From Amoebophrya sp. A120 (lineage: Eukaryota > Protista > Dinoflagellata): 64,000 nt of DNA. The notes beneath the pieces were generated by a model, which worked only from the letters and a program-made list of their open reading frames with translations, had not been told where the DNA came from and made no database searches. The translations under genes and the position numbers were made by a program. Below are positions 4,401-62,200 of the stretch, piece after piece; positions within the stretch are counted from its first letter, which is position 1; each line of letters opens with the position of its first letter. The DNA lies in the NCBI GenBank assembly GCA_905178155.1, contig CAJINV010000009.1, positions 3,466,768 to 3,530,767 of the forward strand, written 5' to 3'.

Positions 4401-7400
4401 CAAAACACGAATAGAAAACGCTTCTCATGGGGATGCGCATTACAAACGTTCTTGTGCTTGCAGATCTGCATGACAACTCTGGGGTGGCGACGTTTTTACA
4501 CAGGATAACTCCCTGCGATTTCGGACGGCCGCGGGCCGCGGTTCGTGCAGCAGTTGAACCGCGTGACGGAAATCGGGTTTCCGAATCTCGTATGAACTGC
4601 AAATACGTCTGGGTCTGGGAGAATGCGAGATTTGTCATGCTAGTCTGGCATGACTCTAAACTCTGTATTGCGTGAGCGCGAAGAGCTCTCCTTGTCTGTC
4701 ATGCAAAAACTAAAACGCAGTTTCTCATGCGGAGCACGCAACTCTGAACCACGGAAAGACTTGTCATGCTGGGCAGGGCATTAAGTTGCGCTCACTCTTC
4801 CCTTTCTTGCATCACAAGTTTCCAGACCCAGACATATTTGCGATTGATAGCACGGTGTGGCGAACGTCTTGCGGAAGGGGAAGATTGCGATCGAACTGTT
4901 GACGTTGGAGTTGGATTTTATCCAAGAAAAAAACGTTGTTAGTGTAAATTTGTGATGCGCAACACGCAAGATGATTGCGTCTGTCATGCTTGGCATGCGT
5001 CATAGGTTCCATCAAAGGGCATTTTCCCGTACTATCTGCGCATGACAGGTTTTTGCTGTCATGCCAGACAAATTTGTAATGCTGTTCCTCCAGAAAAGTT
5101 ACACCTACAATGTTTTTTTCTTGGATAGATTTGAAATGGAGACTACTACCCGGTTTAAACGAGACGCAAAGGCAAGTCGACGCGCGTTCGACGTTGAACC
5201 AGGAGATTATGGAAGTGTCAGAATCGAAATTGACAAAATCGAAATGATTTGCCATGCATAAAATGGATTCCAGCTCGAACCCAGTTTCTAAGTTGCGCAT
5301 CACAAATTCTGGTGGTGCCTAAGTCCACTTTGTAATGCTGTTTAGGCAAAGAAGACAGGAGATTCTCTCATGCTGCTTTAGCAGCTCGAGCTATTACCCC
5401 AAACACGCTTACAATCGGCCTCACTTGCCTGCTCTGCAACACACGTATTTCGCGTCATGCATCTTATGCATCACAAATTTTTCGATTTTGTCAATTTCGA
5501 TCCTGACAGTTCCATAGAAATTGAGATCATGAGGGGGCGGAACGTGAAGTCGGTTTCCTGGCAGATTCCCAACATCCTGAACATTTTAGATTCCCCGGAC
5601 GAGGAAGTGAGGACGGCACCCATTATCTCCCCCTCGTTCACCTTAGCCGGGATCGACCAAGTCCAGTTCATTTTCTACCCGAACGGCTACCAACCGGCGT
5701 ACCAGGACGCGTGTGGGTTGTTTCTCTGCTGTCCGCGCGGGGGGTGCTACTTGAAGGCCGAGGTGTCCATTGGGGGACTGGCGAAAAACACGAGATTGTA
5801 CCAACACGAATACACGAACAAAGAGTTGACTTACGGCAGGGGGTCCTTCTGCAACGTGTACGACGGGATAGACAAAGTGACAAACACAATTGAAATCACG
5901 GCGAAGGTGTTGGACGGGTACCAGTACAAAACGAAGTTAGGGGAGGCGGACAAGAGTATCAAAAGGAAAAATCCCCCCTCCTCCCCATAATCAAAACGAA
6001 GTTTCTGATGCTGGATTTGCGTACACAAATCCGATTTGTCTTGCAGTAAGGCACTGCGGCCAGATGATCCGCAGTCTAGGTGGGAGCGTTTGGGTATAGT
6101 TGTTCAGCATTGCAAACAGCTACCCTCTAGGACCAGCAGCATGCCAAATCGTTTCCGCAATTGGTCGGATGCCTCTGCGCTTGTCTTCTTGCAAGACAAA
6201 CCTGATTTGTGGTCGCAAATCAGCAACGCAAATTTTCGGAAATATACCTGTTCAATATGGGGAGGGGGGATTTTTCCTCTCGATAAAGAGTCTTTTGAAA
6301 GTCTGCCTCCACCCGTCCGTGGACGGAATTCAGGAGATCAAGGCGTTATTTGGTGCGGAAACCGACGATGTGGAAAAAGCTCGGGCACGGCAGGCGTTCC
6401 GGAACACCAGTCTAGCGTCCAAAGGGATCATATCGAATGCAAAAACATCTGGGTCTGGAAGGTTGGAACCTGTGATGCTAACTCTGGACTCTAAAAAAAT
6501 CTGTAGTGCATGACCAGCGATGGGAGTCTAGCTTCTGCTACGCGGAGAGGGCGTTTGCCATGCGGAATAGGCATCAGGAAGCCCTCTAAAAATCTGTGAT
6601 GCTAGGTCGTGCATTACAGACATCCTGGGTCATGCAAAACATGCATGACAAGTGCAAGTCTCAGAACCTTCCAGACCCAGACATTTTTGCATTTGATAGA
6701 TCAACAACGTCGGGTCAAGTCCGCGGTTGGGCCAAGAACGTATGGCGTTCTCAAACGTTACATTCTCAACTGTTACGGATTTGGCACGGATTTGGATGCT
6801 GTTTAGCCCTTCGGAGATTTGTCATGCCAAGCAGCTTGATCATCTACCGGCTCAAGGTAGTTTTGCATGACAAATTCATGTAACAGGTCAGAATGTAACG
6901 TTTGAGAACGCCATAGAACGGGGACCGTCGCCGGACTCTGAAACACGGAAGATGAAAAAGTCGCAGTCCGGTTCCCCGCTCGGCTTCGGCGGTCATTTGT
7001 CCATCGGGAAAACGGCAAAGAACGAGAAATTCCACCTCTCCCCAAACCAGTTGGAAAAAACCTCGAAGATCAACAACCAACTGCCCCCGATTGTCACGCC
7101 CGGTGGGCAGTCGTCGCCTGTGAATCAGAAAAGAGCGAGGATTTTGAACAACAAACTCGAGCAGAGTCCCATTCTCGCGAAGGAGCTGAAGCGCCAGCAG
7201 TTGGAGCAGAAGGAGAAGGAGTTGGAGAGAAGGAAAATGGAGCGGAAACAGGAGCAAACGAATCGGGCGATGCTGAATTGGAAAAAGGTGAAAAAGATCG
7301 TGGAGAAGATGTCCTTATCAAATGCAAATATGTCTGGGTCCGTCTGGGAGATTGCGAGCTTTGTCATGCTAGTCTTGCATGACTCCGAACATTGATTGTA

Positions 7401-13087: not shown

Positions 13088-13881
13088 GAAAAGAGAAAGA
13101 CATGGAGGACAGATTTTATTTAAAGTTTACACATAGAACTAGAAGAAAAGCTGTGTCGTTTCTGGCATCTGGCATGCATACCAAATTTACGTTTTTCAAG
13201 TATGGTTTCTTTTTTCAAGCAATACAGCATTTCTGCAGCCTACTTTTTAGCTACCCCTCTAGTTTGAAAATTCTTTCTGTATAATTTTTTGTGTTGCAAG
13301 AAGTCCAAGCGCAAGTCCAAGTTGTCCATGCCTCCCAAAGGTACTGCGTAATTTGGAAAATGCACGAGCCTATGACCCATTCCCAGTTTTTGCCAAGAGC
13401 TTGCCGAAGATCAGAAGCATGCAGCAGACCAGATGGTCGTGTTGACTATCATGATTCATTGTCATGTTCTTTGGCTAGAAGTTCTCGAAAAGCGAAGGAA
13501 GGTCCGGATCAAATTCCCACCGATCATGAACACGACAACCTGATCTTCCAACCGCTCAGTTCTGAATTTGTTCTCGGATCGAAATTCACGATCATGTATC
13601 AGATTTGAATCGTTGATTGAAGCTCCTACATGCAGATCATCGTCAGAGTAGCACCCACCTCAAATGATCGCGATTCATTCAAACACGATCGCAAAGTCTG
13701 TGAACAAGTAGTCCTCTTTTCTGCTACTTCAACCAGCGACCTCCAGGCGATATGCTCGATGTGGCGACTTTTGTTTGTTGAGTTTGAGCAGTAGTGTTGT
13801 TTGTTTTTGTATTCAGATTTTCAACTCCACAAGAAGGTGTAGCGGCTACGTCTGTTCTTGCTCTCAGCTGAAAAAATAACC

Positions 13882-30108: not shown

Positions 30109-31375
30109 GAGCGAGGTAACAAACCCAAACGAGAACTTCGCGGTTGAGTTCTCATCCGGCCGGCCGGCCGGATGAGAACTCAACCACATCAGCGGCGGAA
30201 ATCGACCGGCTGGTCGTCCTGGTCAATTGGCCCGCCATTCGCTCGGGCGAAAGGGGGGGGGGGCGGCCTGCTGGAGACCGACGCTTCCCTCACTCCACTT
30301 TCGCCGGGGGCCGTGTGCAACACAAAAACGCTACGCGCGCCTGCTGTGAATACAGAGAAGCTACGCTATGCAGCGGGGCAGAAGTTGGAAAATTTTAAAG
30401 GTGGCGCATTGTGCGCGCCCGCCGCGGGCGCGCTTTCATAGTTGGACTGCGCTATGCCTTTTGGCTTCTGGGTGGAATTCGAAAGAATTGAATGCAAAAA
30501 CATTCGCGGGGCTCGCAAACGCAATAGGCAAAATTTCGCGGGGCGCGCAACGCGCGCCCGCTATACGTTGCAATCGCCGGCCCAGAAAGCGCGTCCGCGC
30601 GCCTCTCCGCTGGCTCATGCTTGCTTCGGCGCAACAGTTGGCAGATGCGCCGGATCCGGGTCGGACGCGCTTCGCGCGTCCACCGACTTGCGTGATGGGA
30701 GGCGGGGCCTCGCTCGGCGCGCCGGGCAACCAATCTCCGACGCGCCGCGCGCGCTGCCCTTTGTTTCTGCCGGCGCCCGAATCCTGCGGCGCGTCGGGCT
30801 CCAAAGCTGCCCCCACCCGATAGCAGGGACAATGCAAATGGCCTGGGCCGCGCTTATGTGTGCCTCCGCCGGGCTACTGGCGCCCTAGCAATCTTTATCG
30901 TTTCCCACACGCGAAGGCGGCGCAGCAGGATGGCCCGCGCGCGCAAGTTGTACGCTGTTGCTTTGCTTCCTGGTGGGGTTCGTCGGCGCCCGGCCGCAGC
31001 CGGCATGGTCACTCAGCCAGCGCTGCGCGCCCGCGTTGGGCTGTGCCCCCATCCTCTGGGCCCCCAGGCTTATCGTCTTTTCCGGCGACTCGCAGTAGAA
31101 GTAGCAAACAACGCAGCTTCTGCTTCTTGGCTTTAGGCACTTGCCGCAGCTTTTGCATGACAAAGCTCGGGCTTTTTGCGTAGAAGTGAAACTGCGCAGC
31201 TGGGGGGTGACAATCAAGAAGAAGAGTGAGGCCGTCGACCAGGAGGGAAGAAGGGGACCCGGACGACCGGCCGGCCGATTTCAATCCGCCACAGATGTGG
31301 TTGAGTTCTCATCCGGCCGGCCGGCCGGATGAGAACTCAACCGCGAAGTTCTCGTTTGGGTTTGTTACCTCGCTC
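30109..31375. mobile_element. Non-autonomous DNA transposon with ~82-bp perfect TIRs and 3-bp TSD (TTG)
   Basis: GAGCGAGGTAACAAACCCAAAC.. at left and its exact reverse complement at right; TTG on both sides; each TIR contains a 44-bp palindrome; no transposase motif seen. Confidence 0.85.
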
Positions 31376-36161: not shown

Positions 36162-37940
36162 ATGGGTAACCACTACGGTTTCTGCAGTTGCATCCAGCAG
36201 GATGAGGTTGGCGCAAAGGAAAAATTCGGGGAATTTATCGGTTTCGCGGAGCCGGGGTTCCACTGCTTCCCCGTGCCATGTGTCTGTGGTTTGAACGACA
36301 TGGTGGCATCAAAACGGGTGCAATTCGACACGGTCAGGTGCGAAACAAAGACGAAGGACCACGTATACGAAGTTGTGCTGTATTTTTAACCTGCATTCTT
36401 TTTTCCGACAATCTAAATCTCTGTTGCGTGATGTGTATGCAACGTAGCAGCATGACTTTCTTATGCATGCCGGTATTTCATCTTCTTCTGCATCACAAAA
36501 AATGAAAATCCTAGGTCTTCGTCGAGGTTTCTATCCAGGTTCAATTTGAGGTGGACTACTCAAATCTCGACACGCTCTATAACGTGTTCTACAAAGTGGA
36601 CTCCTTCACGACCAGGATAGACCGGTATGTCAAGGACATCATCCGGGCGAAGATACCGTTGTTAACTCTCGACGAATTGTTCCTCGACACGGCGTCGATT
36701 AAAGAAGATATGTACGACCGCATGAAGGAAGTTATGGCCGTTTTCGGGTACCGGCTGCTTGACACTTTGCTCGTCGACATCGAGCCGAACAAAATGGTTG
36801 CCGGGGCCATGAACGAGATAGAAAAGGTATCAAAAGGAAAAATCCCCCCACCCCACATTAAAAAGAAGTGTCTGATGCTGGATTTCAGTAGTACACAAAT
36901 CGGACTTGTCATGCAGTAGAGGACTGCAGGCACATGCCAAGCCTGAGCCGGGATGTTTTGGCGTAGGCTCCTTGCATGAAAAACGTCGATGGTGTAGGCC
37001 CAACAGCATCACAAACCGCCTGCATGATACGGCGGATTCTCTGGATTTGCCTGCATGCAAGACAGACAGGATTTGTGGCGACAAATCCGCATCACAGATT
37101 TTCAGAAGGATGCGCTTTGAATATGGGGAGGGGGGATTTTTCCTCATAATAAAAGGAGAAAAGATTAAGACTAGCGGCTTTCAACCGGGCGGAAGCGGAC
37201 AAAATCGCGATTGTCAAGCACGGAGAGGCCACGGCGGAAGAAAAGTATACAATCGTAGTTGTTGTGATGTTTTTTTCAAAAGAGTTTGTGATGCAGAGTC
37301 AGCATTGTCATCTCTAGGTTTGTGTACTTACTTAATTCCTTATACGTGACGCAACATTCCATAAATTGAAATCTATCAGGCGTCTCAATGGTGAGGGGCT
37401 CGCGTATGGCGTTCTCAAACGTTACATTCTCAACTGTTGCATGATTTGTGATGCAAGAATGGCAACAGGGAAAGGCCGGATCTTGTAACTCTTGCATTAC
37501 AAATTCGGCACAGATTCCCATGCTGTTTAGCCCTTCCAAAATTTGTCATGCGAGGTAGCTTCACTGTGTGGACGTTAATGCTCATTCTGCATGACAAATC
37601 ATGTAACAGTTGAGACTGTAACAGTTGAGAACGCCATATCGCGAAGATGCGCAACGCGATCATCGACGGCCTTTCAGAATCGCTCGATATCTTCGAATCT
37701 TCCACCGCCGCTACGGGCGAAGGGGGGAAGGAGGGGAAAATCAATCGGCACGAGGTTCTCGACTTGCTGTTAATAGCGCAGTACTTCGACTACTTAGGGG
37801 AAGTCGGCGGGGGGAAGTTTTCGCTGAAGAGGAAAACCGAATTTAACACGGAAACAAATTTCTTGCAACATAATCCGGGGGCTATGAAAACGGTTCGGGA
37901 AATCATCAAACAAAGTATTGCCAGCCCGGAACTCGGGTGA
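36162..37940 (+). CDS. SPFH/band-7 protein, hypersensitive-induced-response (HIR)-like, paralogue 1
   Basis: CETKTKDH/VFV, TLDELF, LLVDIEP, AMNEI, GEGLAKMRNAIIDGL, LLLIAQYFD, HNPG; GT-AG introns 36363-36514 and 37245-37379; introners 36828 and 37405. Confidence 0.9.
36828..37151. mobile_element. Introner family G
   Basis: DR aaagg; MNEIEK/EKRLRLAA restored. Confidence 0.9.
37405..37638. mobile_element. Introner family C
   Basis: DR tcgcg; GEGLA/KMRNAI restored. Confidence 0.9.
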
Positions 37941-38355
37941 CGGTGAAGCAGTGGAGGATGCTAGTACCGCTTGACAGTACATACAAACAAAGACTACCCA
38001 AAAACACAATGTACTGCTCTCGCCGAATAAACTACACTTCAACTGATCATGAAATGCTGGCTTCGCGCGGTGTGCCATGTGCGGAGCCACACATTGCACC
38101 GCCGGGGCAAGATGGACGCTCGGCTGCGTTGCGCATCCCAAGATAGAACAATATTGAAACGCTTGTCCCCAGTTGTTGAACATAGAAGACACGTCTGAGT
38201 GCTTCCACGAGTGATGTGTTTCTTCCGACACTGACGGGGCCGGCTCGAGCTCGACTAGTTTCAGTTTGTTCATTGTGCACTGCTGGTTTGTTAGTAGATT
38301 GATAAAGAACTGAAGCAGGGGCACCTTCTTGTACTCCCTCTACTAGTAACTCAAG

Positions 38356-40315
38356 ATGCTCGGTAACTCGAACCAAGCGGGATGGAACGACTGCGGGTGC
38401 TGCATCTGCATCCCGCAGGATTCTGTTGCCATCATCGAAAATTTTGGTAAGTTTGACCAAGCTATCCTGTGCAAAAGTATCGTACTCGTAGTAATTGCTG
38501 CTATGCATGACAAATCTCTCTCTTAAGGGAAAACAGCATTACAAGTTTCATTTGTAACGCTGAGCGAGTTTGTAATGCAATTTATACTAGTACGATGGGA
38601 TGCTTTTGCATTCGATACAAGCCGCCCCCGCCGGGTTCTTCTGCCTCAAATGCCCCGCTATGCATTGCAAATATGTTGTCTGGGTCCGGAAACACGTATA
38701 AAACTTCTGATCTGCATTTGAGACCAGAACAAAATCTGTCATGCATGGACCGCAAAAGGTGCTCATTTCTTGTGACCAAAAGAGGGAGCTTGTCATGCGG
38801 ATTGCGCATCGCCTAACCTGCTCAAAACCTGTGTTGCTAGGACTTGCATGCCAGATCTTCTGTGTCATGCACAAGCAACATTACATTCTTCCAGACCCAG
38901 ACATGTTTTTTGCATTTGATACCCGGGATCTGGGTGATGCGCGACTTGGTGACGCTCCGGGTCCAGCAAAAGACGGTGGAGGTGGAGACAAAGACGAAGG
39001 ATAACGTGTTTGTGCAGATTATGGTGGCGGTGCAGTTTGAGGTGATTCCTAGTCGGGTGGAAGACGCGTACTACAAATTGGCGAACCCGAGTGTGCAGAT
39101 CCACGCTTACGTTTACGATGCGGTAAGGACAAGAACTACTTTGGTTTTATTAATTTCGATTTTTCTTGAATATGAATATCTATGTCATCTGTAGTTTTGC
39201 ATGTGACCTCGGATTTCTCATGCGAAAATGGAAACCGAAACCAAATCCAAACTCACTCAGGTCCGCTCCACCATCCCAAACCTCACCCTGGATGAGGTTT
39301 TTGAGGGCAAGAACGAAGTGTCTGTCGAAGTGGAGAAGCAATTGACGGAGCACATGACAAATTTCGGCTACCAAATCCACGGAGCACTGATTGTCGACGT
39401 ACAGATTATTGCATTTGTGCAGTTCCTTTCGAAACGGAAACGTCAACGTGTGTTGTTGCGGATTTCCTGCAGGAGAAAACTTTTTGTACTACAGAAACAA
39501 ACCATAACCAGGTATCACCCGCCGCGGCTGTGAAAAACTCAATGAACGAAATCAACGCGAACAAACGAATATCACATGTAAATATGTCTGCTGGGTCTGG
39601 AAAGTTGTGATGCTAATAGCCGAATGATACGCAGGAGCATGTATTAGGTGGCCGCGCATGACAAGTTTCTGAGCGGCTGTGTCTAGCGCGCATGACAAAT
39701 GGCCTTTTTGCATGACAAACAATTGGCACTGTAGCGCACCAAGCATGACAGACTTTTCTGTCTTGTCGCTCAAGCGCGACAGACTTGCATTCTTCCAGAC
39801 CCGCCTGCCAGACATATTTGCATTTGATAACGAAAACGCATTGCCGCGGCGGAAGTTGCGGAGGCACAAAAAATCTTCGCTATCAAGCGAGCAGAGGCGG
39901 AGGCAGAGTCGAAATACCTGCAGGGTAAAGATTTCTTGAAGATGCGCTTTGCACTCTTCCTCTTGCAGCATGACAGAATGCTTCCTCGTTAGGGACGATC
40001 GTAACCGTAGGTACGCATGAGTACTTGTAATTAATTTTTTCCGCCAACTAAAACAAAAGCAACCCACGACCAGGTGAGGGCATCGCCCGGCAGAGGAGGG
40101 CAATCGTGGAAGGGCTGCGGGATTCTGTCAACGAATTTTCGGAAAAGATCGAGGGCATGAAGGCCAAAGATGTGCTGGAGTTGGTGTTGATTACGCAGTA
40201 CTTTGACACCTTGAAGGATATCGGAGAAAAGACGGGGACAAGTACGGTTTTTGTGCCGCACAATCCTGGAGCACTGGGGGCGTACTCGCAGCAGATTCGG
40301 GGGACGTTTAAGTAG
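38356..40315 (+). CDS. SPFH/band-7 protein, HIR-like, paralogue 2
   Basis: [74 protein letters not shown]; GT-AG introns 39123-39260, 39399-39511, 39925-40073; introners 38463, 38659, 39570. Confidence 0.92.
38463..38617. mobile_element. Introner family B
   Basis: DR caagc; frame restored. Confidence 0.9.
38659..38921. mobile_element. Introner family A
   Basis: DR cccgc/cccgg; frame restored. Confidence 0.88.
39570..39829. mobile_element. Introner family A
   Basis: DR acgaa; EINANKR/KRIAA restored. Confidence 0.9.
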
Positions 40316-41435
40316 GCGGTGATAGGATTAGGAAAGATGAGCGTGTTGCTTATTTCACTGCGCCAGGGTTTTTTCAAACCAGATACCGCTTTGACTCTAT
40401 TCTATGTTTTGCAATTATAGACAAGTCGTTCTGTTGGTGGTAACCTTACGTTGGTAGGACCACGGAAATTTATTTCTACTGGAACAACATATTCGCCGAA
40501 AACAGAAACTGCAGTCACATGATGTTGCGAACCCTGCGTGGCGGCACTACAATCGATGTATTCGCATGGAGCATGATCATGGTGGGTCGTTGTAAATCTA
40601 TGACTACGTCGTAGCCAGTTCGTATCGTAATCGTTCGCCAGACAACGTGCAGTGTCAACACAGATCCGTCGTTCATGAATCGTTTTGGCAAAGATCATCC
40701 GTGGAAAATTGCGCCTTCTAGTGGTACCTGTACCGTTCGACTTCGAGTTCGTGCCGTCCTCGTCTGCGTGGACCTTCTCTCGTGAAGCTCGTCTGGTTGA
40801 GATCGTGATCGTATAGTGTGCCTGCATGGAAAGTTCCTCTTATTGCAGATCATCTTTCTATCGTGACAAAGTCGTTTTTCGCACCAGACAGACGCAGTTC
40901 TATTCGCTTCCCTGTCTCCCCGAATCCCTTCCTAGATGCTCCTGGAGAAGTAGTACTTCTGTGCCAAGGATATCATACTTATTTGTTTCAAATCTCCCAC
41001 ACCCTCGTGAAAATGCGTTTCGCGTCACTAGCCGCACGGCATTTATTCACTACCCTGTACTCCCACATCGTCGCCTCAAGTTACTACATAGTACGCCTAA
41101 ACATGCAAAATTCCACTCCAAAATTACCTGTCCTAACGCGTAGGCCCTGTTTTTTCATTGCGATTCGTAAAGTGTGCGAACAATTTCTGAACAGTACAAC
41201 GTTATCGTGGTTGTTGAACTCATTACAGCTTGTGCTGTTGCTATAAACTTCTGAAAAAAAACTTCCTTACGATGCGTTCTTCGCAAGTCGCCTTGTGCTT
41301 GCGCAGTCGACCACAGCGGTCGACCACCACCCGAGGAGCACACTGAGGCTGAGATAAGAGAGCACACAGCAGCTGCTGCTGCTGCATAACGGTTCGTAAA
41401 CAAGCAGAAAGACTTTCTGCTCGTCGTCAAAAGTT

Positions 41436-44400
41436 ATGGTGGACAACTCGGTGCTGTTTACTACTTTAGACGATGATCTGCAGGATCAGTTGCGGACCAT
41501 TAAAGCGAAGGGATGGAAGAACACGAAGTTCAGAGGTACACTTTTTGCTCTTGGATATGTGTCATGCATGATTTGCAGCATGACCTGCATTTGCTACACA
41601 GGAGCATGAAAAACAATTCCAAAATCAATAAATCAAAACAGACAATCACACCCTGGTCCACTGGGCGTGTTTCCACAACCGCATCGACGTTCTGCATCTG
41701 CTCCTGGAGTCCAACTTCCGTGATGACATTGACTTGGAGATTCGCGACACGGCCGGCCACCGCGCGGTGGACTACGCGACCCGACCCGAAATCCGCCGCT
41801 ACATGGACAACGCGCGGATGGCGCAACAGGCGAGACGGAAGTTCCAGAAGTTGAATAACCATAGTTGGATGAGCAGCCCTGGGGGGCAGTTGTCTGGTAC
41901 TTCTGCGACCACGTCTTCGCGGCTGCAACATGGAGGTGTGTCCTCCCACATGAATAATTCCACCACCAGTAGCCCGATGAACCACTACCCGAGCAACACT
42001 CTATCATCTTCGCAGCACCTCACCCTTGACGACTTTTCCGCGCCGATGTCCATCACGAGACGATCAGAGTCAAATTCCTCCACGAGTCGGCAAGGGGATT
42101 ACTCTGCCTCCCTAGTCGATTTGACAAAACTCCCCGCGGTGAACGAGGAGGAAGAATTGCAGCAAGAGGGATCTTTTTTCTGGAATAAACTGCTCGGGGG
42201 ATCGATGTTTTCCGGGATGGGTGGTAGTAGCAACGCCTTGTCCCAGCACGATGACAGGTCTACCGGCGTAAGTACATCAACGGCGACGGGCGGCGGGCAG
42301 ACGAGTAGCAGCTCGTTTTACAATACCAGCTCGGGTAGCTCCGCATCGGGGGACGATGGAATGTTTGGGACGACGAGTTATGGAGGCGGGAACTCGAGCT
42401 CGAGTAGTAGCCCGGCCCAGACGGTTGTGCACAACGGACAGAGGGCGATTGACATATTACCGGGTAGCAGACCTAGTGCAGCGGAGCAACAGCAAGGAGG
42501 AGGAGGTGATGGGATAAACAATGAACAGCCAACAAGTTCTTCTATCGGCGGGTTTATTAGTGGATTAATGTGGGGAAGCAGCGGTACTAGCAGCAGCTCT
42601 AGTACCTCATCACCAACTGCTAATCCGGGAGGTCGTGGTAACACGGGGGCCCAATACCATCAGCAGCAACACCAGCAGCACAAAAAACCACCTCCTCCGA
42701 CCAAAAAACCCAAGAACCGCTTAGGCAACGCGGAGGAGCTGTCCGATTTAGCTGCGTTTTCCCACCGCCAGCAGATGAAAGTGCAGGACAAATTGGATCG
42801 ATCCTCAAGAGCCGCTGGTGCAAACGAGCCCTCCTGCCCCGCCGCCTGCCCCAAGCCCTGTTGCGCTCCGGGCCAGGCGAATTTCCCCGGAAGTAACCGA
42901 CTGTCGCCCATGGCGGGGAGGATCGGTTTAGGAGCGTTAAACAGCAATTTTGACGGTTGTCAGGAGATCGCGCACAGCAACACCAGTCGGGGGAGTTCGT
43001 GGGTGAATCCAAAAGCGCCGTTCTCCCAGCGGGGACTCTCGCCAAACGGAACAACGGGTACTAGGGGTGGCAGTTACGACGATGATAGGGACAAAGCGAC
43101 AAATCTGATGGACATGCTACAGTCGTTAGACCCGAGAAGCGAGGATACTATGAAACAACCGGGGCACCATCAGAAAGCTTCTTCCTCTGCGCATCACCAT
43201 CATACTCATAGTGGCAACACCACAACGTACGGCTCTGTCACTTCCAACTCCGACCGGTTCCGAGATCTGCAAGCGCAATACGCACCCTCACCCGGATTCG
43301 AGAGGCAAGACCATCATCAAAACGATATCCTGAGTAAAAACGTACCCACACCAGAGTCAAGATGGCAAATCTGCTAGACAAATCAGCCAGCTTTGGTCGT
43401 TTGGCATGACAAGTTCGTCTTCGTAGTGTAATCCTGTTTAGGTAGTTCAGCAGCATCACAGATCTAGTATATCATGCTGATTGTAGCATCACAAATCCCA
43501 AAACACGACTAGACAATGCCTCTCATGGCGCTCCGCATGACAAACCTTTTTGGCATGCAGATTTGCATGACAACTCTGGTGTGGGTACGTTTTTACTCAG
43601 GATAAACGAGGACTGGTCGGACGATGATGACGAGGATGCGGATATCCTGAGCAAAAATGTACCCACCCCAGAGTTGTCATGCAGATTTGCAGCTACAGGA
43701 AGATTTGTAATGCGCATCCACACGAGAGGCGTTTCCAATCGCGTTTTGCGCTTTGTAATGCTGTCGACAGGATGAGTAGATGGATTTGTGTTGCGGCTGT
43801 GCTTGCTAAACTGCACTACAATACAGAGACGAACTTGTCATGCTGGACCCCCAAAACTTCTCGATTTGTGTTGCAAAATCCCCATCCTGACTCTGGTGTG
43901 GGTACGTTTTTACTCAGGATAGCGGAGTTTAAGAAGGTGAAAAAGCGTCTGAATGCGCGGAAAAAGAAGAAAAAGGGGACGGTCTGCTACTGCCCCACCC
44001 CTTGGGGCCACGAAATACCGTTGAATTGCTGTCAGTGCGTGGTCTGCACCTTAGTGTCCACGGGGGTGAGCAGTGTGGTGTTTTTCGTGCTGATTTACTT
44101 CGTGATGGTTTTGTTCGGCTTGATGGAAGCGGGAGAAATCAAAACGTTGTGGACGATGAACGCCGGTAAAAATCACCATAGTAATACCGGGAGCCCAGCG
44201 TCTTCACGCCATTCGAGTAACGGAGGGAGGAACAACAACCGGAGAAATCGGCGAAGTAGTAGATCATCCTCTAACGCCCGGTCTTCTTGGCAACATGAGG
44301 ACGACGAGGGTAGGGGGAGAAATGCAAATGACGCACAGGATGGTGGTGGTTCTGTTACAACCCGAGCAGGAAATTACAATGGGCAAGACAACGGTATTAA

Positions 44401-45514
44401 AAACAATCGGTTCGCCATCAGCGATGCGGATAACGCGCTCGAGCAGGAGGAACTAGTCAGGCAATTTGACACGACAAGGGCGAATGAAGAAAACGGCAAT
44501 TATGATCCCAACGCAGGCGAAGACGACGAAGAAAACATCAATGGAGATGGCAGTCAGGATCAGGACCCGCCCGAAGACAACGGGTATGATTATAACGGAG
44601 ATGACAGAGGACCAAGTACTAGAGAGGACCAGGCCGAACAACAGGATCAGAACCAAAGTACACAAGAACAGCAGGATGGGAATCTTCAAGAGCAAGACCA
44701 GCGGCAAGAAGAGCGATCAGGAGCGGCCTCGTCCAACAGCAGGAACAATAAGCCGGCGCACAAGAGCAAAAAAGCCCGAAGGAGAATAAACCACAATAAC
44801 GGCAACAGCGATGGTACTAACGGCCAAGCCACGCACCATAGTTCCCAACACCACGCGACCACGCACAGTATGACCACCAGCAGCTTTGGGGAGTTTGTTG
44901 GAGGTGCGGACGGGAGTAGTGATAGCATTGCTCCTGCACTGTTCAACGACAATCTGCAAGATCGGACTGTGAACCTAAACCTTTCGGGAACATCATCAAG
45001 CAGCAGCAATACAAGGAACACCTACGTTGCGCTGAGGGGATCTTCAACAAACACGGGGAAAACGCCACAGGCGCTTCTGGCAAGATCTGGCTCGACGTCG
45101 TCTACCGAGGAACCAGATGATCGGCTATTCAATGAGGACGGGGAAGAGGATTCTGCTGAGTACAATTCTCGCCTCGCTGTCGCGGAAGGCGGTGTGCAAG
45201 AACCAGCGACGAAAGGAGAATTGACCGTGCCCTCGTACGGAAGTAGCTCGTTTCTTGCTACGGTTGCGGAGAAGTACAACTACCCGGGACACGATGAGAT
45301 TGACGAGAATGGCGGCATGGAAGATAATGCGGACGGTGGTCTGACTCTGAACTACGAGCTCTACGCGGAGCAACAAAGTCAGAAGGGCGGTGGAACGAGC
45401 CACTTACGGGGGGTAGTAGTGCGACAAGATACAACGCCACCTCGGGAGGTTCAGGGGAAAAATGCGGAAGAAGTAGCACGAACCGCGTTTGAAGCCACCG
45501 TTTTCTATGCGTAG
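41436..45514 (+). CDS. Ankyrin-repeat protein with long low-complexity regions and one central TM helix
   Basis: DNHTLVHWACFHNRIDVLHLLL..DLEIRDTAGHRAVDYA after GT-AG intron 41536-41641; ORFs 41734 and 43679 join across introners 43326 and 43643; TM VSSVVFFVLIYFVMVLFGL. Confidence 0.75.
43326..43604. mobile_element. Introner family D
   Basis: Long perfect TIR; DR aacga. Confidence 0.92.
43643..43921. mobile_element. Introner family D, inverted relative to 43326
   Basis: DR gcgga; frame restored. Confidence 0.92.
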
Positions 45515-46494
45515 GAACAAAGAAAGCGTGGTGATAAATTCTGTATAGAAGTGCAAACGAAAGTTGTCATACCAAACTATTACATGCGCCTATCCTCCGT
45601 AGTATGGCAACGGAAGCGAAAACGAAAATTAACGGATGTCTCAAGCACGAAAACCTCCTGTAAAAATTTCCTGAAGCGATTCTGTACAAATTTGTTGTCC
45701 ACCTTGTCTGAAACAACAGAGAATGCCATGCAAATTCGTGTACAATTGGAATTGATTGTCGAAGTGTCGTACTAGTCCAAAATGAGAACAAACAAGAAGG
45801 AGAAGCTGCGTTTCAGCCGGATTTGATTTCCGTATTCACAGGATACGCGAAAGAGCAACAGCCGCATAATCCGATATGTTCCTGAAGAATAACCTATCGG
45901 TTTCTTTTTTTCATGCCTTACGACCGCGAAGCAGATATGGAGTGGAGATGGAAATCTTTTTTTTTTCACCTGAGAGAAAAGGAAACAGCAACAAAGACGT
46001 CTCCGTTTTTTTTCCAACACCCCAAATCCAGCTTTTTCGTTGGAGGTCGATTGGTGTGCCCTGGTTCCTGTTTTGCTCACGATCTTGTTTTGTTGCTTCA
46101 GTTTTGTTTACTGAAGTTGAGTCGGTTCTTCAAGTACACTGCGATCCACCGGTCCGACGTGCTACTGCATTCGAAGACGATCACATTTCTCATGGAAGTT
46201 GAAGAGGTCGTCTGTCGTCAGTAGGCCTTGCTATGATCATTTCTTTCAACCGAGCCTCTGGCTCATCATCATCTTATCGTTCTGATTGTCCGTCGATACA
46301 AACACAATCCCTCTCTTTTTTTCCAGTCTTGAGTGAGAAAAATTTGTGTCCGTTGGAATCGACATCGAATCCACGGTTTCTAAGTTCTGGTAAAAAATAC
46401 CTGTTCTCTCTCTTAAGTTAAGTATAAGTTGTGCTGTCGTTTTCTGAAAATAAAGCGTCTGCTTTCGTCGCGAAAAACAGCGTTGTTGCTTCTG

Positions 46495-46688
46495 TATCCC
46501 GTGCAAAAGTATCCTAGTACTCCCACAAGAAATTATTGCAATCGGGTCGTATGATAGATCCTAATCCTATTTCTCGGCCAAGCTGCATGACGAGTAAGTT
46601 TGATGATTTTTCCTGTGGTAAGAATTGGCATGCGAAGATTCTTGTCCATGCGAGATGACAGTGGGATAGGATATTTTTGCAATGCATA
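46495..46688. mobile_element. Degenerate B-like element, probably in a 5' UTR
   Basis: tatcccgtgcaaaagtatcct..aggatatttttgcaatgcata; DR decayed (ttctg/gtcgg). Confidence 0.65.
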
Positions 46689-46788
46689 GTCGGTTGACCA
46701 CTCTGTGAACATCCTGGACCCTCACCGCTTTGCTTCCACCGCGAACCGTTCGACTCTGTGATCGATACCATCATCGCGAACCATCAAC

Positions 46789-48419
46789 ATGTCGACCTCC
46801 AACCAGATGAACCAAGAATGCACTCCGCTGCCGACGTCCTACCGTCATCCGACCGCAGATCACGAGAAGCAGCACCGGGAAATCATCGAGTCCTACTGCG
46901 TATCCAATGCTAAAGGAGCATCGGGCAAGAAGAACATCGCCAGCCCTCAATTATAGGCTAATTGCGATTATGCATGACTACAGATCTGCCAATATGTTAT
47001 ATGTTAAGTATAAATGATTGTGATACCACGCGGCTCCAAGCCCCATCTTTCTTCATTTGTTCAAGTTGTCATGCAGCGACATGTACATGTATCAGTGCAC
47101 GATGCTTCTGCAATGCATACCGTGCCCGCAAAGGACTGAAGTGTGCGGATGAGGTGCTGTTCGCCAAGGTCGTCGTCAAGGGTCACGGTACTTACCGCGT
47201 CAGTATGCATTGGAAATATAATGCCTGGGTCTGGACAGGTGAAACTTGTGTTGCATGTCCTGCGTTTTTCCTGAAAAATCTGTATTGCACAGCCACCAGC
47301 ACGAAGCGCATGGCTCTTCTGTGATGCAAAAATGCACGTTGTCATGCGTGCTACGCATCAGACCACGGCGCCAACGAAACTTGTCATGCTTGGCTGCACT
47401 TGTCGAAGGCACCAGACGCATCCATGCTCTAGCATCACAAGTTTCCAGAGATCCAGGGTGGATATTTGCAATGCATAGTCAGCTGGACTGTGCGAAACCA
47501 GGTCGGTGACGTGAAAACGATGATCACAGCGAAGACCGGAATCTCCCACGAGCAACTGAGTGGCGCGGGTTGCGAGTTCCAAATCTCCGAGCACCGTACT
47601 GACCAGCCGATGGAATACTGTTTCGGTTCCGAGAGTGATGACACCCCGCTGCTCTGCTTGATCAGCTCTGGTATAGTCTGACACTTTATAGCACCGCCTA
47701 ACACGACCGGAGGTGCCTACCCCAACTTTTCTAACTGAGAGAATGCATAGTAACCATGAGCATGCGCTTGTATGTTTCGCTCGTCCCTTATTTCGTATGT
47801 ACCGCATCGAAGAGATGGAGCTCTGCGTCGCTGCTGACAGCCAGAACGTATAGAAAACTGGTCGTGCCCCAGCATACGCTGTTTGAAAAAAACCCGCACG
47901 GAGAGTTGTGTCAAGATCTATTCTTATTTCGCGAGTCTTTGAAATTCTTCGACTGGGGGCAAGAACATCTTGAAATTGTATTGTCGAAAAACAAGAATCA
48001 GAATGTCTATGTCAATGTCAAAAAAAAATTGAAACACAGGTGGGATTATCAGCGTGAATTTTGTCGGCCACAAGAAAGGAGACGGCGACTCTGGTGTAGT
48101 TGCGCCGCACGATATGACAGTGCACAACTCCCCCACCCCTCATTTGTCATGCAAAATCCCAAATCTACCTTCTGCCTGTGACCACTCTTTGTATGACAGA
48201 TTCCGAAATCCAAAACAGCACTACCATCGCCTAGGAATTTGCCATGCAAAAGCTGCATCTTTTTCTTTGCGCCGGCGCTTGTGTAGTTGTTGTTCTTGCA
48301 ACACAAATGAGGGGAAGGGAGAGTTGTGCACTGGCATAGACGAGGATCACGACGACTCCACCGCGTCCACCGGCGTGAGCGGTGTCTCTGGTGTGAGCGA
48401 TAGCGAATCTGATTGCTGA
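46789..48419 (+). CDS. Small protein with possible ubiquitin-like domain; 3' exon structure uncertain
   Basis: VLFAKVVVKGHGTYRVS/WTVRNQVGDVKTMITAKTGISHEQL is rebuilt across elements 46901 and 47204; the fold call is by eye only. Confidence 0.45.
46901..47119. mobile_element. Degenerate B-like introner
   Basis: DR ctgcg/ccgtg; frame restored. Confidence 0.7.
47204..47477. mobile_element. Introner family A
   Basis: DR gtcag; frame restored. Confidence 0.85.
48113..48338. mobile_element. Introner family H (TIR TATGACAGTGCACAACTCCCC)
   Basis: DR cacga/gacga. Confidence 0.85.
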
Positions 48420-56200: not shown

Positions 56201-59200
56201 ACGAAACACCTGAGCGGTGAGGTGCAGCACCTGATCGCATCTTTACTAATATGCATTGCAAATATGTCTAGATCTGGAAGGTTGAAACTTGTCATGCTAA
56301 ATCCGAATCAAGCAACAATCTGTGTTGCATGACTGCCAAAAGCTGTCCACTTTCGACCAAGTTGGAGGGGAGTTTCTCATGCAGGATGGGCATGACAGAG
56401 ACCTCGCAGACTCTGTCATGCTAGATCCCGCATTCCAGACCTCATGGCTAATGGAAAACCTGCATTACAAGTTTAGACTCTTCCAGACCTCCCAGACACC
56501 TTTGCAGTTGATAACTAACCGCCGACGCGGATAAAAGGATGACCTTGGAGGAAATCTTCCGGCACCCGTGGTGCCACATGGGCTCGGAGTATTTGGCGAA
56601 GCGAAAACATCCGGTGACCACACACATCCCGCACAGAATACCGATCAGATTCGAGAAAATCCCGGAGGAGCGGTCAATTACGCTAGGCGCAACCGACGAG
56701 GTCTTTGCGGACGCGAATGAAGGCGACGGTGTAGGTGGAGTAGCTCCGGGAGGTTCTTCTTCGACGAAAGAACAGAAATCTACTGCGACGAGTCCGAAAG
56801 GGACGACAAATGACGCCGGAAATAATGTTGGAAAGGAAAAGAAGTTCGACCCGCCGGAACGAGGGCAAGAACCGATCATACAACCGACTACGGCACCAGC
56901 TGCAACTCTGGAATCTGCCGCGGTCAAAGAGACCAGTACTGTAGTAGTCCAAGGTAGTTCGAAAGACGAAATTGAGCTCGTTGATAAGTCGGTGAAGTCC
57001 GACAGCTACGATGAAGTTATTTCCGCGCCGTTCCAGAAACGGTCAGACCAACCTCTGGACACTAACTCGCCAAGAAGCTGCAATCGACAAGGCAACGCGA
57101 CGCATCACAGTTCATCTGTGTCTCCGTCGAAAGGAGCTGCTGTGAGAGGCGGACATCAGTTCATCCGCCCGGGGGCCGGAAATGTCGTTGCGCCGACGGA
57201 GATTCAGATCAACGAGGCCACTTCGACAGCGGTCTTAGCCGCCGCCGGTGGGGAGAAGCGACTGTCGCCCACGATGAATTCGCGTGGGGGAAACAACAAC
57301 TCGCCCAACAAACTACACAACACCATGCAGCCAGTGACGGTGCATACCACAACCTACCCCATGTCTGCTGGTACTATCACTGGAGCGGCGGTTGTGGCTG
57401 GAGGGCCGCACGACTCGCAGTTATCAAATGCAAAAATGTCTGGCTCTGGGTCTGGAAGAGTCATGCTGTTTTTGCATGACACAGAAGGTCTGGCATGGAA
57501 GATCTAGCATTACAGGTTTCGAGAAGCTTCCGCGATGCCGAATTTGCATGACAAATCCTCCATTTTCATGGGAGAAAGTGGGCAGCTTTTGCTACCTATG
57601 CATGAGAGATTTTTCTGTCTTCTGAAATGCGCATCACAAGTTTGTATGTCGGTGCGGTTGTTTTAGCAATGTCGGTGCGGTTGTTTTAGCATCACAAGTT
57701 TGTATTCTTCCAGACCCAGACATATTTGCAATCCATAGCAGTACGCAAACGACTATTACTTCCAAGAACTACTCCATTTACAGGCGACGATTGCGAAGTG
57801 TCTCGAGTCGGCCTATTTGGCGTACAGGGGGGCGAACCTGTCCGATGAATCTTCCATCGTGACAACGACAACAAATTCGACCTCCAATGTGCCCACCATC
57901 AACACGGTGGTGTCCACCGACACTTCGGACGTTTTACTCTCCAAGCACCTCCAGACGCAAAACACGGGCACCACGGGGGCAACAGCAACTACATCTGCAG
58001 TTTCCGCGACGGAGTCTCTTCTCGTCCAGCCGGCTTCTTCCGCCCAGCATCATCAAGTCGCAACTACGGGACCCGCCACAACGTCTATGAACCAGACCCA
58101 AGCTAATATGGTGACAACCTCTATCCTGTGCAAAAGTATCGTACTCGTACTAATTGCTATCATGCATGACAAACATCCATTTTTAGGTGAATCAGCATTA
58201 CAAACAAGGTCCGAGCACGGGGACAGAGTCCCCGTGCGGCGACCTTCCGGCATTTGTCTGCGCGGTGGCACTGGGCAGGCAGGTCGCTCGCAGCTAGGTA
58301 ATTCGTTGCGCTTTGCATTCAATGACCCGCGACGGGGGGGCCTCCTGCGGACGCGGCTCCCCTGCTTGCGCGCACTAGATTCATTAGCCTGCCGCGCGCA
58401 AAGATAAAAAGAAAAGAAGAAACTGACGCCGGGTCTGCAGCCGGCCCCCAGGTTATGGCGCTGCGACAGAGTCCCCACATTGCCCTAGGGCTTTTCTCTG
58501 CCCCCTCCTTGGCCGCGCGGTGTGGTTAACGGGGAGCGCTAACAGCTGGCCCCTAGGCCATGACGCGGGGACCGAGTCCCCGCGCTGGCCTAGGGCTTTC
58601 GCCCCTCGGCCGCACGGTGTCCGGGAAGCGCCCACAGCTGGCCCCTAGGCCATGACGCGGGGACCGAGTCCCCGCGCTGGCCTAGGGCTTTCACGCCTCG
58701 GCCGCACGGTGTCCGGGAAGCGCTCACTGCTGGCCCCTAGGCCATGACGCGGGGACCGAGTCCCCGCGCTGGCCTAGGGCTTTCGCCCCTTGGCCGCACG
58801 GTGTCCGCGAGCGAAGCGCTCACAGCTGGCCCCTAGGCCATGACGCGGGGACCGAGTCCCCGCGCTGGCCCAGGGCCTTCGCCCCTTGGCCGCACGGTGT
58901 CCGGGAAGCGCCTGCAGCTGGCCCCTAGGCCATGACGCGGGGACCGAGTCCCCGCGCTGGCCTAGGGCCTTCGCCCCCTGGCCGCACGGTGTCCGGGAAG
59001 CGCGCAAAGCTGGCCCCTAGGCCATGACGCGGGGACCGAGTCCCCGCGCTGGCCTAGGGCCCTCGCCCCTTGGCCACACGTTGACCGGGGAGCGCGCACA
59101 GCTGGCCCCTAGGCCATGACGCGGGGACCGAGTCCCCGCGCTGGCCGAGGGCTTTCGCCCCTTGGCCACACGTTGACCGGGGAGCGCGCACAGCTGGCCC

Positions 59201-62200
59201 CTAGGCCATGACGCGGGGACCGAGTCCCCGCGCTGGCCTAGGGCTTTCGCCCCTTGGCCACACGTTGACCGGGGAGCGCGCACAGCTGGCCCCTAGGCCA
59301 TGACGCGGGGACCGAGTCCCCGCGCTGGCCTAGGGCTTTCGCCCCTTGGCCACACGTTGACCGGGGAGCGCGCACAGCTGGCCCCTAGGCCATGACGCGG
59401 GGACCGAGTCCCCGCGCTGGCCTAGGGCTTTCGCCCCTTGGCCGCACGTTGGCCGGGGAGCGCTCACAGCTGGCCCCTAGGCCATGACGCGGGGACCGAG
59501 TCCCCGCGCTGGCCCAGGGCTTTCGCCCCTTGACCGCACGGCGTCCGGGACGGAAATGGTCACAGTTGGCACCTAGGTCATGGCGCGGGGACATAGTCCC
59601 CGCGCTCACCTAGGGCTTTCGATCGCCCCTCGGCCGCACCGTCTCGCGTGACAGCTTGGGCTTTGGGTCCAAACCCCACATAGCAAAGTCCGAAAGTTTG
59701 GCTGGGGTGTGTCCGAGAGTCTGCCCGGGGTGTGTCCAAAAGTCTGCCCTGGGTGTGTCCGGGGTGTGTCTGGGGTATGTTCGGACTTTTTGCCTGGGGT
59801 ATGTTCGGGGGTCTGTCTGGGGTATGTCTGGGGTGTGTCTGGGGTGTGTCTGGGGTATGTTTATACCCCACCTGTTGGCTTTTCGGCAAAAAATTGTAGT
59901 CCGCCCGTGATTGAGGAGCATTTGCATACCCCTGACACACCCCCGAACATACCCCCGAACATACCCCTCGCATGCATTTTTGACCAGCTGCTGCAGTTTA
60001 GATAGTAATTGCATTTTATTTCCTTTTGAAAAAATTTGTGATGCAATTTATACTAGTACGATATTTTTGCAATGCATAACCTCGGAAAGACAGCAAATTC
60101 TGACGAAGCTGCGGAATTTGTCGCAAAAGTGCTTCCAGGTGACGGCCCACCAGGCTTATGACTGCGTGGCGCAGTTTGGTGCGACGGCGAGGCGTATCAA
60201 ATGCAAATATGTTGGGGTCTGGAAGGTCGCAACTTGTCATGCTGTGTTTGTATTCTAGGGAAATTTGTATTACATGACCAGAACTACAAAGAGGGGTCCA
60301 GTTTGTGTTGCAACGCGGACAGGGCATTTCTCATGCAAAAGGCGCATCATTCAGGAAAGGTCCTAAGATAAATCTGTGATGCTAGAGCATACATCACAGA
60401 CAACCATGGGTCATGAGAAATATGCATGACAAGTCTTGCATTCATCTTCCAGACCCTGACACATTTGCAGTTCATAAGGCGGGTACGGGAAGACGTGTTG
60501 CCCGACATGCAGCTCGCGATCGAAGAGGACGCGCCGGAGCTCGCGCAGGGCTTTCTGGAGACGATAAACCAGTGGGTGTCGGAGATGAAGGACATGAACA
60601 CGAACATCGAGGACAGCTACAAGATGATCAGCGAAGAAATCCGAATTTTAATCGACTCGACTTCCGTTTTAAAAAAAGCGGTGGACGAGGAGATTTCGCA
60701 AGCGAACTTGAATTTGAAGCAAATTGCGGCGAGTTCCGGCGCTGTGGTACCAGCGAGTATCACGACGCTGAAGGCTGGAGCGGTTGTAGCAACGAGTGGT
60801 GGCGCGAGCGGGTCTAGTACTGCTTTGGCGCGGACCAGTTCGATCCCGGGTGCGACGACGACGACTTTAACGGCCGCGACCACGCCGACGGTGAATAATG
60901 CCACTTCAAGTAGCGCCATGTCTACTTCAAACAAGAATCATGGAAGTAGATCATCGTCGAACAACTGCTCGCCTGCCGACCACATTCCGGATTTGCAGGA
61001 CGCGAGGGCCGTGGTGCCGGTGACAAGGATATGAACTGCAAATATGTTTGGGTCTGGAATAAACTTGTGATGCTAGTTTCTGAATGGTGGGCGCACTGCG
61101 TTACGCAGCCACGCATGATAAGTTTCTGAGCTTCTATGTCTTTCGCTTCCCGCATGACAAACTGCGTTTTTGCATGACAGGTAAGCGGCTGGTTTCCTGC
61201 TCATGCATTACAGATTCAAGAGCCATGTGAGACAAGCATGACAAACCTGCATTCTTCCATACCCAGACATATTTGCACTTGATAGAGGACGCTCTCGCCC
61301 ACGACCACCGCGCTGATCGCGAACGGGGCAGCAGCAGCGGCGATCGACATATCAAATGCAAATATGTCTGGGTCTGGAAAGGTGGAACTTGTAATGCGTG
61401 TCTTGCTTACCTGAAAAATCTGTGTTGCATGAGCAGAAAACGGGCTGCTTCCCTTTTCATGCAAAAAGAAATAACACAGCTTGTAATGCTTGTTACGCAT
61501 CAGAAGGCGCTTCGGAAGCTTGTCATGCCTCGCTGCCATTGCAAGCGTTGCAATCATGCGCAATTCAGCATCACAGATTTCCAGACCCAAACATATTTGC
61601 ATTTGATACGACACCGAGGTTTACAAGAACTTGTACCAGAAAATCCTGCGCGTAGTGAATATGGACCAGAACATATGAGCGTGCACAACTCCCCGTCCCC
61701 CTCATTTGTCATGCATTTTACCCAAGCCACCCCTTACCTCTTGGCACTGTGTGCATGGCAAGTTCTGGTAGCCCAAATAGCACTATACTCCAATAAAAAT
61801 TTGTCATGCAGAACCGGCATTCTTGCTGATGCTTGTGTTGCTGTTCATGCAACACAAATGAAGATGGGGAGGGGGAGTTGTGAACTGTTATAGAACAGCT
61901 ACGGTGTCGTAAATAACAGCGGTGTCGTCGGCCCGAATTCGGTTACAGGTGTATCAAATGCAAAAATGTCTGGGTCTGGAAGAATGCGCGATTTGTCATG
62001 CTGCTTTTCCATGACCCATGGGGTCTGGAATGCAGGACCTAGCATGACAGATTCTATGCGATGATCTCTCTCAAGCCTATCCTGCATGAGAAAGTCCCTC
62101 CCGACTTGTTCAAAACTGGACGACTTTTGGTAATCATGCAACACAGATTTTTGCATGCTTCAGATTTAGCATGACAAGTTGCAATCTTTTCAGACCCAGA

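Follow-up and report, generated by a model that had tools for sequence, protein, structure and literature searches.

Inverted MITE-like introners around a micro-exon in Amoebophrya sp. A120 and their likely removal by a directional splicing machine

Described introners and the locus under study

In Amoebophrya A120, introner elements have been described as carrying an inverted repeat composed of TAT, seven variable nucleotides and at least three A, together with a direct repeat of 3-5 nt that overlaps the exon/intron boundary (PMC7789003). In the Fig. 3 legend of the same paper their splice sites are termed variable and the border position unknown, and its text reports 83 of 89 spliceosomal proteins in this organism, U1 not being detected (PMC7789003). 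Furthermore, a family with terminal inverted repeats (TIRs) and Copia/Gypsy-like ORFs has been described in A120 (PMC12130899). Beyond this genus, TIR introners in algae have been reported in both orientations (PMC10228655, a review on Huff 2016), and a structure-guided route of intron removal has been proposed for euglenid nonconventional introns (PMC12501133, PMC11282704). For Amoebophrya, we found no statement on a fixed cut register, or on how introners are oriented in their host genes, in the literature, including the text and supplement of PMC7789003, figures aside.

In this context, we analysed a 64-kb stretch of A120 DNA (hereafter the window), in which two neighbouring elements, E1 and E2, interrupt a single gene:

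41436..45514, plus strand: host gene CDS, 1134 aa after splicing; spliced contig 41149-45795
41536..41641, plus strand: GT-AG intron of 106 nt, removed in the same contig as E1 and E2
43321..43325, plus strand: left target-site duplicate of E1, AACGA
43326..43604, plus strand: E1, 279-bp family D TIR element with TAT-N7-AAA ends, TIR 30/30
43605..43609, plus strand: right target-site duplicate of E1, AACGA
43605..43642, plus strand: spacer between E1 and E2, 38 bp, of which 33 nt are retained in mRNA as the micro-exon
43638..43642, plus strand: left target-site duplicate of E2, GCGGA
43643..43921, minus strand: E2, family D TIR element of 279 bp in the orientation opposite to E1, TIR 27/30
43922..43926, plus strand: right target-site duplicate of E2, GCGGA

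The initial annotation of this DNA had recognized two 279-bp family D copies, 38 bp apart and mutually inverted, and both coordinates and alignment agree with it. Global identity between E1 and E2 is 214/281 with E2 reversed vs. 181/296 forward; the interiors without TIRs score 221 reversed and 66 forward (200 shuffles, 34.7 +/- 8.7, maximum 58), and the internal GCAT.ACA motif occurs five times in one direction in E1 and six times in the opposite direction in E2. In both elements the TIRs begin with TAT and end with ATA, and the flanking 5-bp duplication is perfect. The family A copies at 6431 and 7836, also described as lying both ways, are likewise identical at 219/268 positions reversed vs. 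170/289 forward.

The host gene has an open frame of 1146 codons when three introns are removed in silico, and encodes a protein with an N-terminal ankyrin-like stretch (Ank_3 match with E 0.0024, below the curated cut-off), a Cys-rich and hydrophobic segment after the micro-exon, and long low-complexity regions; Pfam matches were obtained in 3 of 15 ORFs. Among 244 candidates, the sole match to the host N-terminus was protein P0001 of Amoebophrya sp. AT5 (E 2.3e-31), to which the host gene is, on sequence comparison, orthologous. The micro-exon peptide (EDWSDDDDEDA) is conserved in AT5, and the alignment of the host translation with P0001 runs through both junctions; the micro-exon thus derives from a once continuous ancestral exon that was split by two insertions. 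P0001 itself comprises 2286 aa and carries a kinase domain beyond the shared region, whereas the window gene stops at 1134 aa and shows no match to a kinase; it may be that two genes are joined in the AT5 model, or that the tails are different.

Two loci of a related assembly, L013 and L022, represent the ortholog of the host gene at ~90% identity, and the first letters of L022 are the last part of an element that occupies the E2 site. Comparison of L022 positions 1-50 with window positions 43889-43921 revealed a family D end in the same orientation, with ~5 of the last 33 letters different. The right end of E2 is identical to that of E1, unlike its L022 counterpart, which may mean that neighbouring TIRs underwent conversion or that end variants were exchanged. 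Moreover, the canonical intron at 41536-41641 carries two GCATGA motifs like those of introner interiors and is perhaps a decayed element. The five GT-AG introns seen (window 37245-41641) have A/C-rich 3' ends without a polypyrimidine tract, which would fit a changed U2AF.

Elements of this kind abound in the window. A scan for TIRs and target-site duplications (TSDs) recovered 45 of them, against 0-2 in each of five shuffles, and hand-checked ones raised the total to 53, with perfect duplicates in 41; in the related loci, perfect 5-bp duplicates flank 112 of 131 elements. At end positions 11-13, A is present in 46-51 of the 53 ends on each side, positions 1-3 (TAT) being fixed by the scan itself. 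Family D has five copies of 279-280 bp, and both orientations are present in every window family of more than one member. The E1 end sequence was found in 55 loci of the related assembly (L001-L055), in which family D shows 16 E1-like and 8 E2-like copies (24 of 48 with a strand decidable, by ORF only), or 15 vs. 8 after L013 and L022 are merged. Ten of 52 neighbouring pairs in the window lie no more than 60 bp apart, so that micro-exons are ordinary here. Where the window has a single 5-mer, at 44039-44043 and at 44513-44517 (one letter different at the second), L022 has two elements; consequently, the duplication arises on insertion.

Other observations concern the make-up of the elements and of the window. 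End variants TATCAAATG, TATGCATTG, TATCCTGTG and TATGAACTG occur at left as well as right ends and in different window families, and the GCAT.ACA motif recurs in all window families; both are likely transposase binding sites. At 58122-60078 lies a TAT..ATA element of 1957 bp with the perfect 5-bp duplicate ACCTC and a GC-rich array of 92-bp repeats (58443-59666), apparently a very long introner or an introner with a nested insert. In L013, at ~2012-3032 on the minus strand, a poly(A)-tailed insert of ~920 bp with a ~23-nt duplication sits within a family A introner and is absent from the same site in L022; it looks like a piece of a non-LTR retroelement, polymorphic inside one assembly. Finally, a GC-rich stretch holds an inverted repeat of 108 nt (30109-30216 and 31268-31375; 91% complementary, 1051 nt apart), which is not of the TAT..ATA type picked up by the scan.

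Removal from transcripts and position of the cut

Removal was read from contigs of runs X3 and X4, which come from one study and were taken as RNA by guess and content, not by record. In an X3 contig of 3973 nt (depth 112), 284 nt are missing at each of E1 and E2, as is the GT-AG intron, and the micro-exon is present. Since the GT-AG intron is missing from it, this contig represents spliced RNA and the host gene lies on the plus strand. Its coordinates match, at 5 of 5 places checked, a model in which the element and one duplicate are removed. The micro-exon that the initial annotation had placed between the copies is indeed kept in mRNA, but it contributes 33 nt and not 38, because 284 nt (the 279-bp element plus one 5-bp duplicate) leave the RNA each time.

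Between 37000 and 49000, a joint is listed for 9 of the 10 wholly enclosed elements, none being listed for the element at 48113. Over 2300-9500, an X4 contig of 6935 nt fits the loss of 15/15 elements at 15/15 places checked, with three junctions seen directly and 12 given by the exact length of unlisted pieces. Altogether, 24 of the 25 elements checked in transcript contigs are removed. By family, the removed copies in plus and minus orientation number 3 and 1 in D, 3 and 2 in A (including 6431 and 7836), 2 and 2 in B, 1 and 1 in C, and 1 and 1 in a two-member family, three of these assignments resting on weak similarity scores (0.27-0.35). The genes concerned are all on the plus strand, as indicated by GT-AG introns and by open frames of 6,708 nt and others. 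The 6,708-nt frame belongs to one gene at 2200-13100 with 16 introners and no canonical intron, which becomes open over this length when all 16 are removed, and whose largest exon has no Pfam match. In DNA-run contigs (X1), which cover the 2300-9500 region and not the focal pair, exons pass into elements without letter differences at depth 37-47; the elements are therefore present in DNA.

Taken together, we regard removal from RNA in both orientations as very likely. The earlier claim of strand-independent removal thus held, both focal copies being gone from one spliced contig and five families losing copies of both orientations; removal of a single orientation only, the outcome that had been set against that claim, was not seen.

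Because the duplicates of E1 and E2 are perfect, the focal cut position can slide, and registers of -1 to 5 fit at E1 and of 0 to 5 at E2. The register, defined as the number of letters of the left duplicate left in the exon, was read from elements with diverged duplicates:

5208..5516, no strand assigned: duplicates GAGAT/GAAAT; register at least 3; contig piece resumes at 5520
38659..38921, no strand assigned: duplicates CCCGC/CCCGG; register 0-4; joint 38653-38922 in one contig, depth 120.9
46495..46688, no strand assigned: duplicates TTCTG/GTCGG; register 4-6; joint 46493-46693 in one contig, depth 5.7
46901..47119, no strand assigned: duplicates CTGCG/CCGTG; register 4-5; joint 46899-47124 in one contig, depth 5.7; plus frame open

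The sole register common to these four elements, each read from one contig and two of them at depth 5.7, is 4, corresponding to a cut 1 nt before TAT and 4 nt after ATA. We consider it probable that this 1/4 register is fixed. When register 4 is set against its mirror image (1), the cut follows transcript direction in 3 of 3 separating cases, so removal is likely directional despite the symmetry of the element. A register of 1, with a TAG-type acceptor directly after the TIR, was ruled out by 46495, 46901 and 5208. The intron at 46495 starts with GT and ends with CG, bypassing a TAG that lies 3 nt short of the cut and would give GT-AG. Carried over to the focal pair, register 4 places the borders as follows:

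43325..43608, plus strand: intron 1 as cut, AT..CG; register taken from other elements, not readable at E1
43609-43641, plus strand: micro-exon, 33 nt under the register so taken
43642..43925, plus strand: intron 2 as cut, AT..GG; register taken from other elements, not readable at E2

All nine predominant A120 splice pairs of Table S4 start with NT (PMC7789003), as register 4 predicts, although the positions in that table may reflect how the authors' pipeline placed ambiguous borders. Under register 4, we observed no end preference among the 53 elements (+1 G in 17/53, p 0.77; -2 A in 18/53, p 0.29; -1 G in 16/53, p 1.0), and target sites showed no residual GT/AG preference. Neither focal intron has a GT/GC-AG reading at any shift, and such a reading is available, at any shift, in only 4 of the 41 elements with perfect duplicates. 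This absence of donor and acceptor preference is hard to accommodate in the active site of a normal spliceosome. When position 1 differs between the diverged duplicates of an element (window and L001-L055), the right copy, whose first base directly follows ATA, has a purine there in 9 of 9 cases; when position 3 differs, it has A there in 3 of 4 strand-oriented cases. These skews, small in number and spotted post hoc, may hint at weak 3' signals.

What the machinery may read, and rival explanations

From removal in both orientations, the initial annotation had concluded that directional signals are not used, which does not follow, since a TIR of at least 30 bp gives the same ends either way and the cut looks lopsided. 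Donor, branch and acceptor signals normally lie within the span that a TIR of ~30 bp covers, and for this reason removal both ways is compatible with a spliceosome. No conserved branch-point motif was identified. The related proposal that recognition depends on the symmetric ends is plausible as a model.

Among 109 elements oriented to genes, end positions 11-13 pair in 106, and positions 4-7 in only 53-78. Over positions 4-20 of the same elements we detected no transcript-strand bias of the kind expected for RNA pairing (G-U 74 vs. A-C 66, p 0.55). A motif that is kept, a stem that is loose beside the cut and no sign of selection for pairing favour motif reading over pure hairpin recognition, and this only mildly, because a transposase could impose the same pattern; the transposase, and not splicing, may account for the conservation of TAT-N7-AAA.

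Our main reading, to which we give a probability of about 0.55, is that the focal elements are MITE-like Amoebophrya introners in opposite orientations, and that what removes them is likely a splicing machine that acts directionally, probably a spliceosome in modified form; that a spliceosome rather than another enzyme is at work we hold to be slightly favoured. In this model, DNA transposition would have created the 5-bp duplication, and the machine would read the TAT-N7-AAA motif at both ends and make its cuts 1 nt ahead of the first TIR and 4 nt beyond the second. With an identical motif at its two ends, an element would offer the same first and last ~30 nt in either orientation, and the fixed 1/4 register, extrapolated from four elements, would restore the exon exactly at any target sequence. 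Pairing of the nearest ends during RNA synthesis would keep the micro-exon, despite the greater stability of a longer duplex between the copies. More tentatively, and with the odds somewhat against it, we suggest a splicing route that ignores GU/AG and measures from the transposon end motif, with its cuts placed 1 nt ahead of UAU and 4 nt beyond AUA. If this were true, the offset would undo the 5-bp target duplication, any insertion, at any site and either way round, would be a harmless intron, and a host machine would be tuned to the footprint of one transposase.

A different possibility, which we rate as rather doubtful and below a modified spliceosome, is removal outside the spliceosome, guided by structure, in which the TIR hairpin would be cut at a fixed distance from the base of its stem by a dedicated nuclease and ligase or by a second splicing machine, as proposed for the separate route of euglenids. 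For each focal copy, in either orientation, folding is predicted to close the ends (-100.8 to -122.1 kcal/mol), which would suit such a route, as would end dinucleotides without preference, the bypassed TAG at 46495 and the failure to detect U1 in A120 (PMC7789003). Nonconventional introns of Euglena moreover have offset motifs (CAG at +3, CTG at -8), and inverted repeats were reported to be important in knock-ins (PMC12501133). However, G-U mismatches are not in excess over A-C ones, the stem is frequently open at positions 4-7 next to the cut, and the stablest predicted fold joins the left end of E1 to the right end of E2, yet the micro-exon is kept. Excision from DNA in the transcribing life stage, leaving an element-free template as with the internal eliminated sequences of ciliates, appears least likely of all. 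By analogy, TA-type symmetric ends and orientation independence would be expected of it, and the DNA and RNA runs are different samples; against it, X1 contigs retain the elements in place at depth 37-47, although joined forms may also occur in that DNA, RNA-like runs also have contigs that link element ends to flanking sequence (loose ends), and the cut follows transcript direction in all three cases that separate register 4 from 1.

The pair could also be functional as a pair, with a duplex between E1 and E2 looping out the micro-exon and leading to regulated in-frame skipping or to RNA editing; we judge this improbable. The ~280-bp duplex that the initial annotation envisaged does agree with the predicted minimum-energy fold of 43321-43926, in which 226 inter-copy pairs give -331.7 kcal/mol vs. 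-225.4 for two separate hairpins, and skipping would keep the frame because the micro-exon has 33 nt. Its looping-out of the micro-exon fared less well, since the depth-112 contig includes this exon and no skipping joint is present among the joints listed (15 of 17, the weakest at depth 5.7), contigs being prone to drop rare forms. No letter difference is listed within the micro-exon in these contigs; the evidence on skipping and editing comes from contigs, as raw-read runs X11-X13 gave 1, 0 and 56 reads, none of them on exons, and the 56 belong to the end of an element at another locus. Conservation of the micro-exon peptide in AT5, the frequency of close neighbours and a further inverted pair (3913/4591), whose copies are predicted to form 203 pairs with each other and are also spliced separately, argue in the same direction. 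During synthesis, E1 is predicted to stay in its own hairpin up to the point at which ~30-60 nt of E2 have been transcribed. Two A-to-G differences in E2 (43875 and 43877) were considered as editing and rejected, as they occur in one contig of depth 7.5 together with a T-to-G change and most likely mark a paralogous copy.

Comparison with known systems

If the fixed 1/4 register is true, ambiguous borders become a rule that is testable genome-wide, with which gene finders could annotate such genomes, and the tolerance of tens of thousands of insertions in coding sequence would be explained. Indeed, a lopsided cut beside mirror-image ends would narrow how introners are removed, and since orientation is irrelevant, the splicing signal is limited to the terminal ~30 nt. 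The focal locus is further a natural test of end pairing, in that a stabler outer duplex is available and the 33-nt exon is still kept.

The focal elements belong to a published class, the Amoebophrya A120-type introner elements (Farhat et al. 2021, PMC7789003), as they lie in an Amoebophrya gene, have TAT-N7-AAA ends and a direct repeat, are removed without GT-AG and form a repeated family. They share with the introners described in the text of that paper the genus, these ends, 5-bp repeats, non-canonical borders and the presence of many families, and also the mixture with GT-AG introns, a length near the 240-nt average and co-oriented genes (PMC7789003); the TIRs are given there as 8-20 nt vs. 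~30 bp here, which is no difference in kind (PMC7789003). Their MITE nature accords with the single-copy 5-mer at the empty sites of two other elements (L022 vs. window), no such site in DNA having turned up for E1 or E2. To this description our analysis adds orientation independence, which is well supported, and a lopsided fixed register, for which the data are suggestive.

Among more distant systems, the TIR introners of Aureococcus and Micromonas (Huff et al. 2016 via PMC10228655, PMC9860276) are, as described in these two sources, likewise non-autonomous TIR/TSD DNA transposons that became introns in both orientations, with splice sites partly derived from the TSD as here. They keep canonical splice motifs co-opted from the target, in contrast to the elements of the window, where a GT/GC-AG reading is the exception (PMC10228655, PMC9860276); GT/GC..AG ends as in U2 spliceosomal introns are absent from the focal pair. 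Nonconventional introns of euglenids resemble those described here in their variable borders, direct repeats and inverted repeats that close the ends, and in motifs set at a greater distance from the 3' cut than from the 5' one (PMC12501133, PMC11282704). They differ in being excised as circles and in their CAG and CTG motifs, and in these sources are mostly not described as recent multi-copy families, unlike the elements here (PMC12501133, PMC11282704); the focal introns have TAT/ATA ends and lack the CAG and CTG that euglenid introns carry close to their 5' and 3' ends, respectively. Introns of Fritillaria borealis are similarly MITE-derived, with TIR and TSD and non-GT/AG borders (PMC11282704, bioRxiv 2025.08.15.670264, PMC13326754). 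Their preferred ends are AG-AC and AG-AT and their U1 is modified, whereas in A120 U1 was not detected and only the T at +2 appears fixed (PMC11282704, PMC7789003). In that species an adapted U2 spliceosome is described as removing the non-canonical introns (PMC11282704), which is the model that we prefer for the inverted pair of Amoebophrya.
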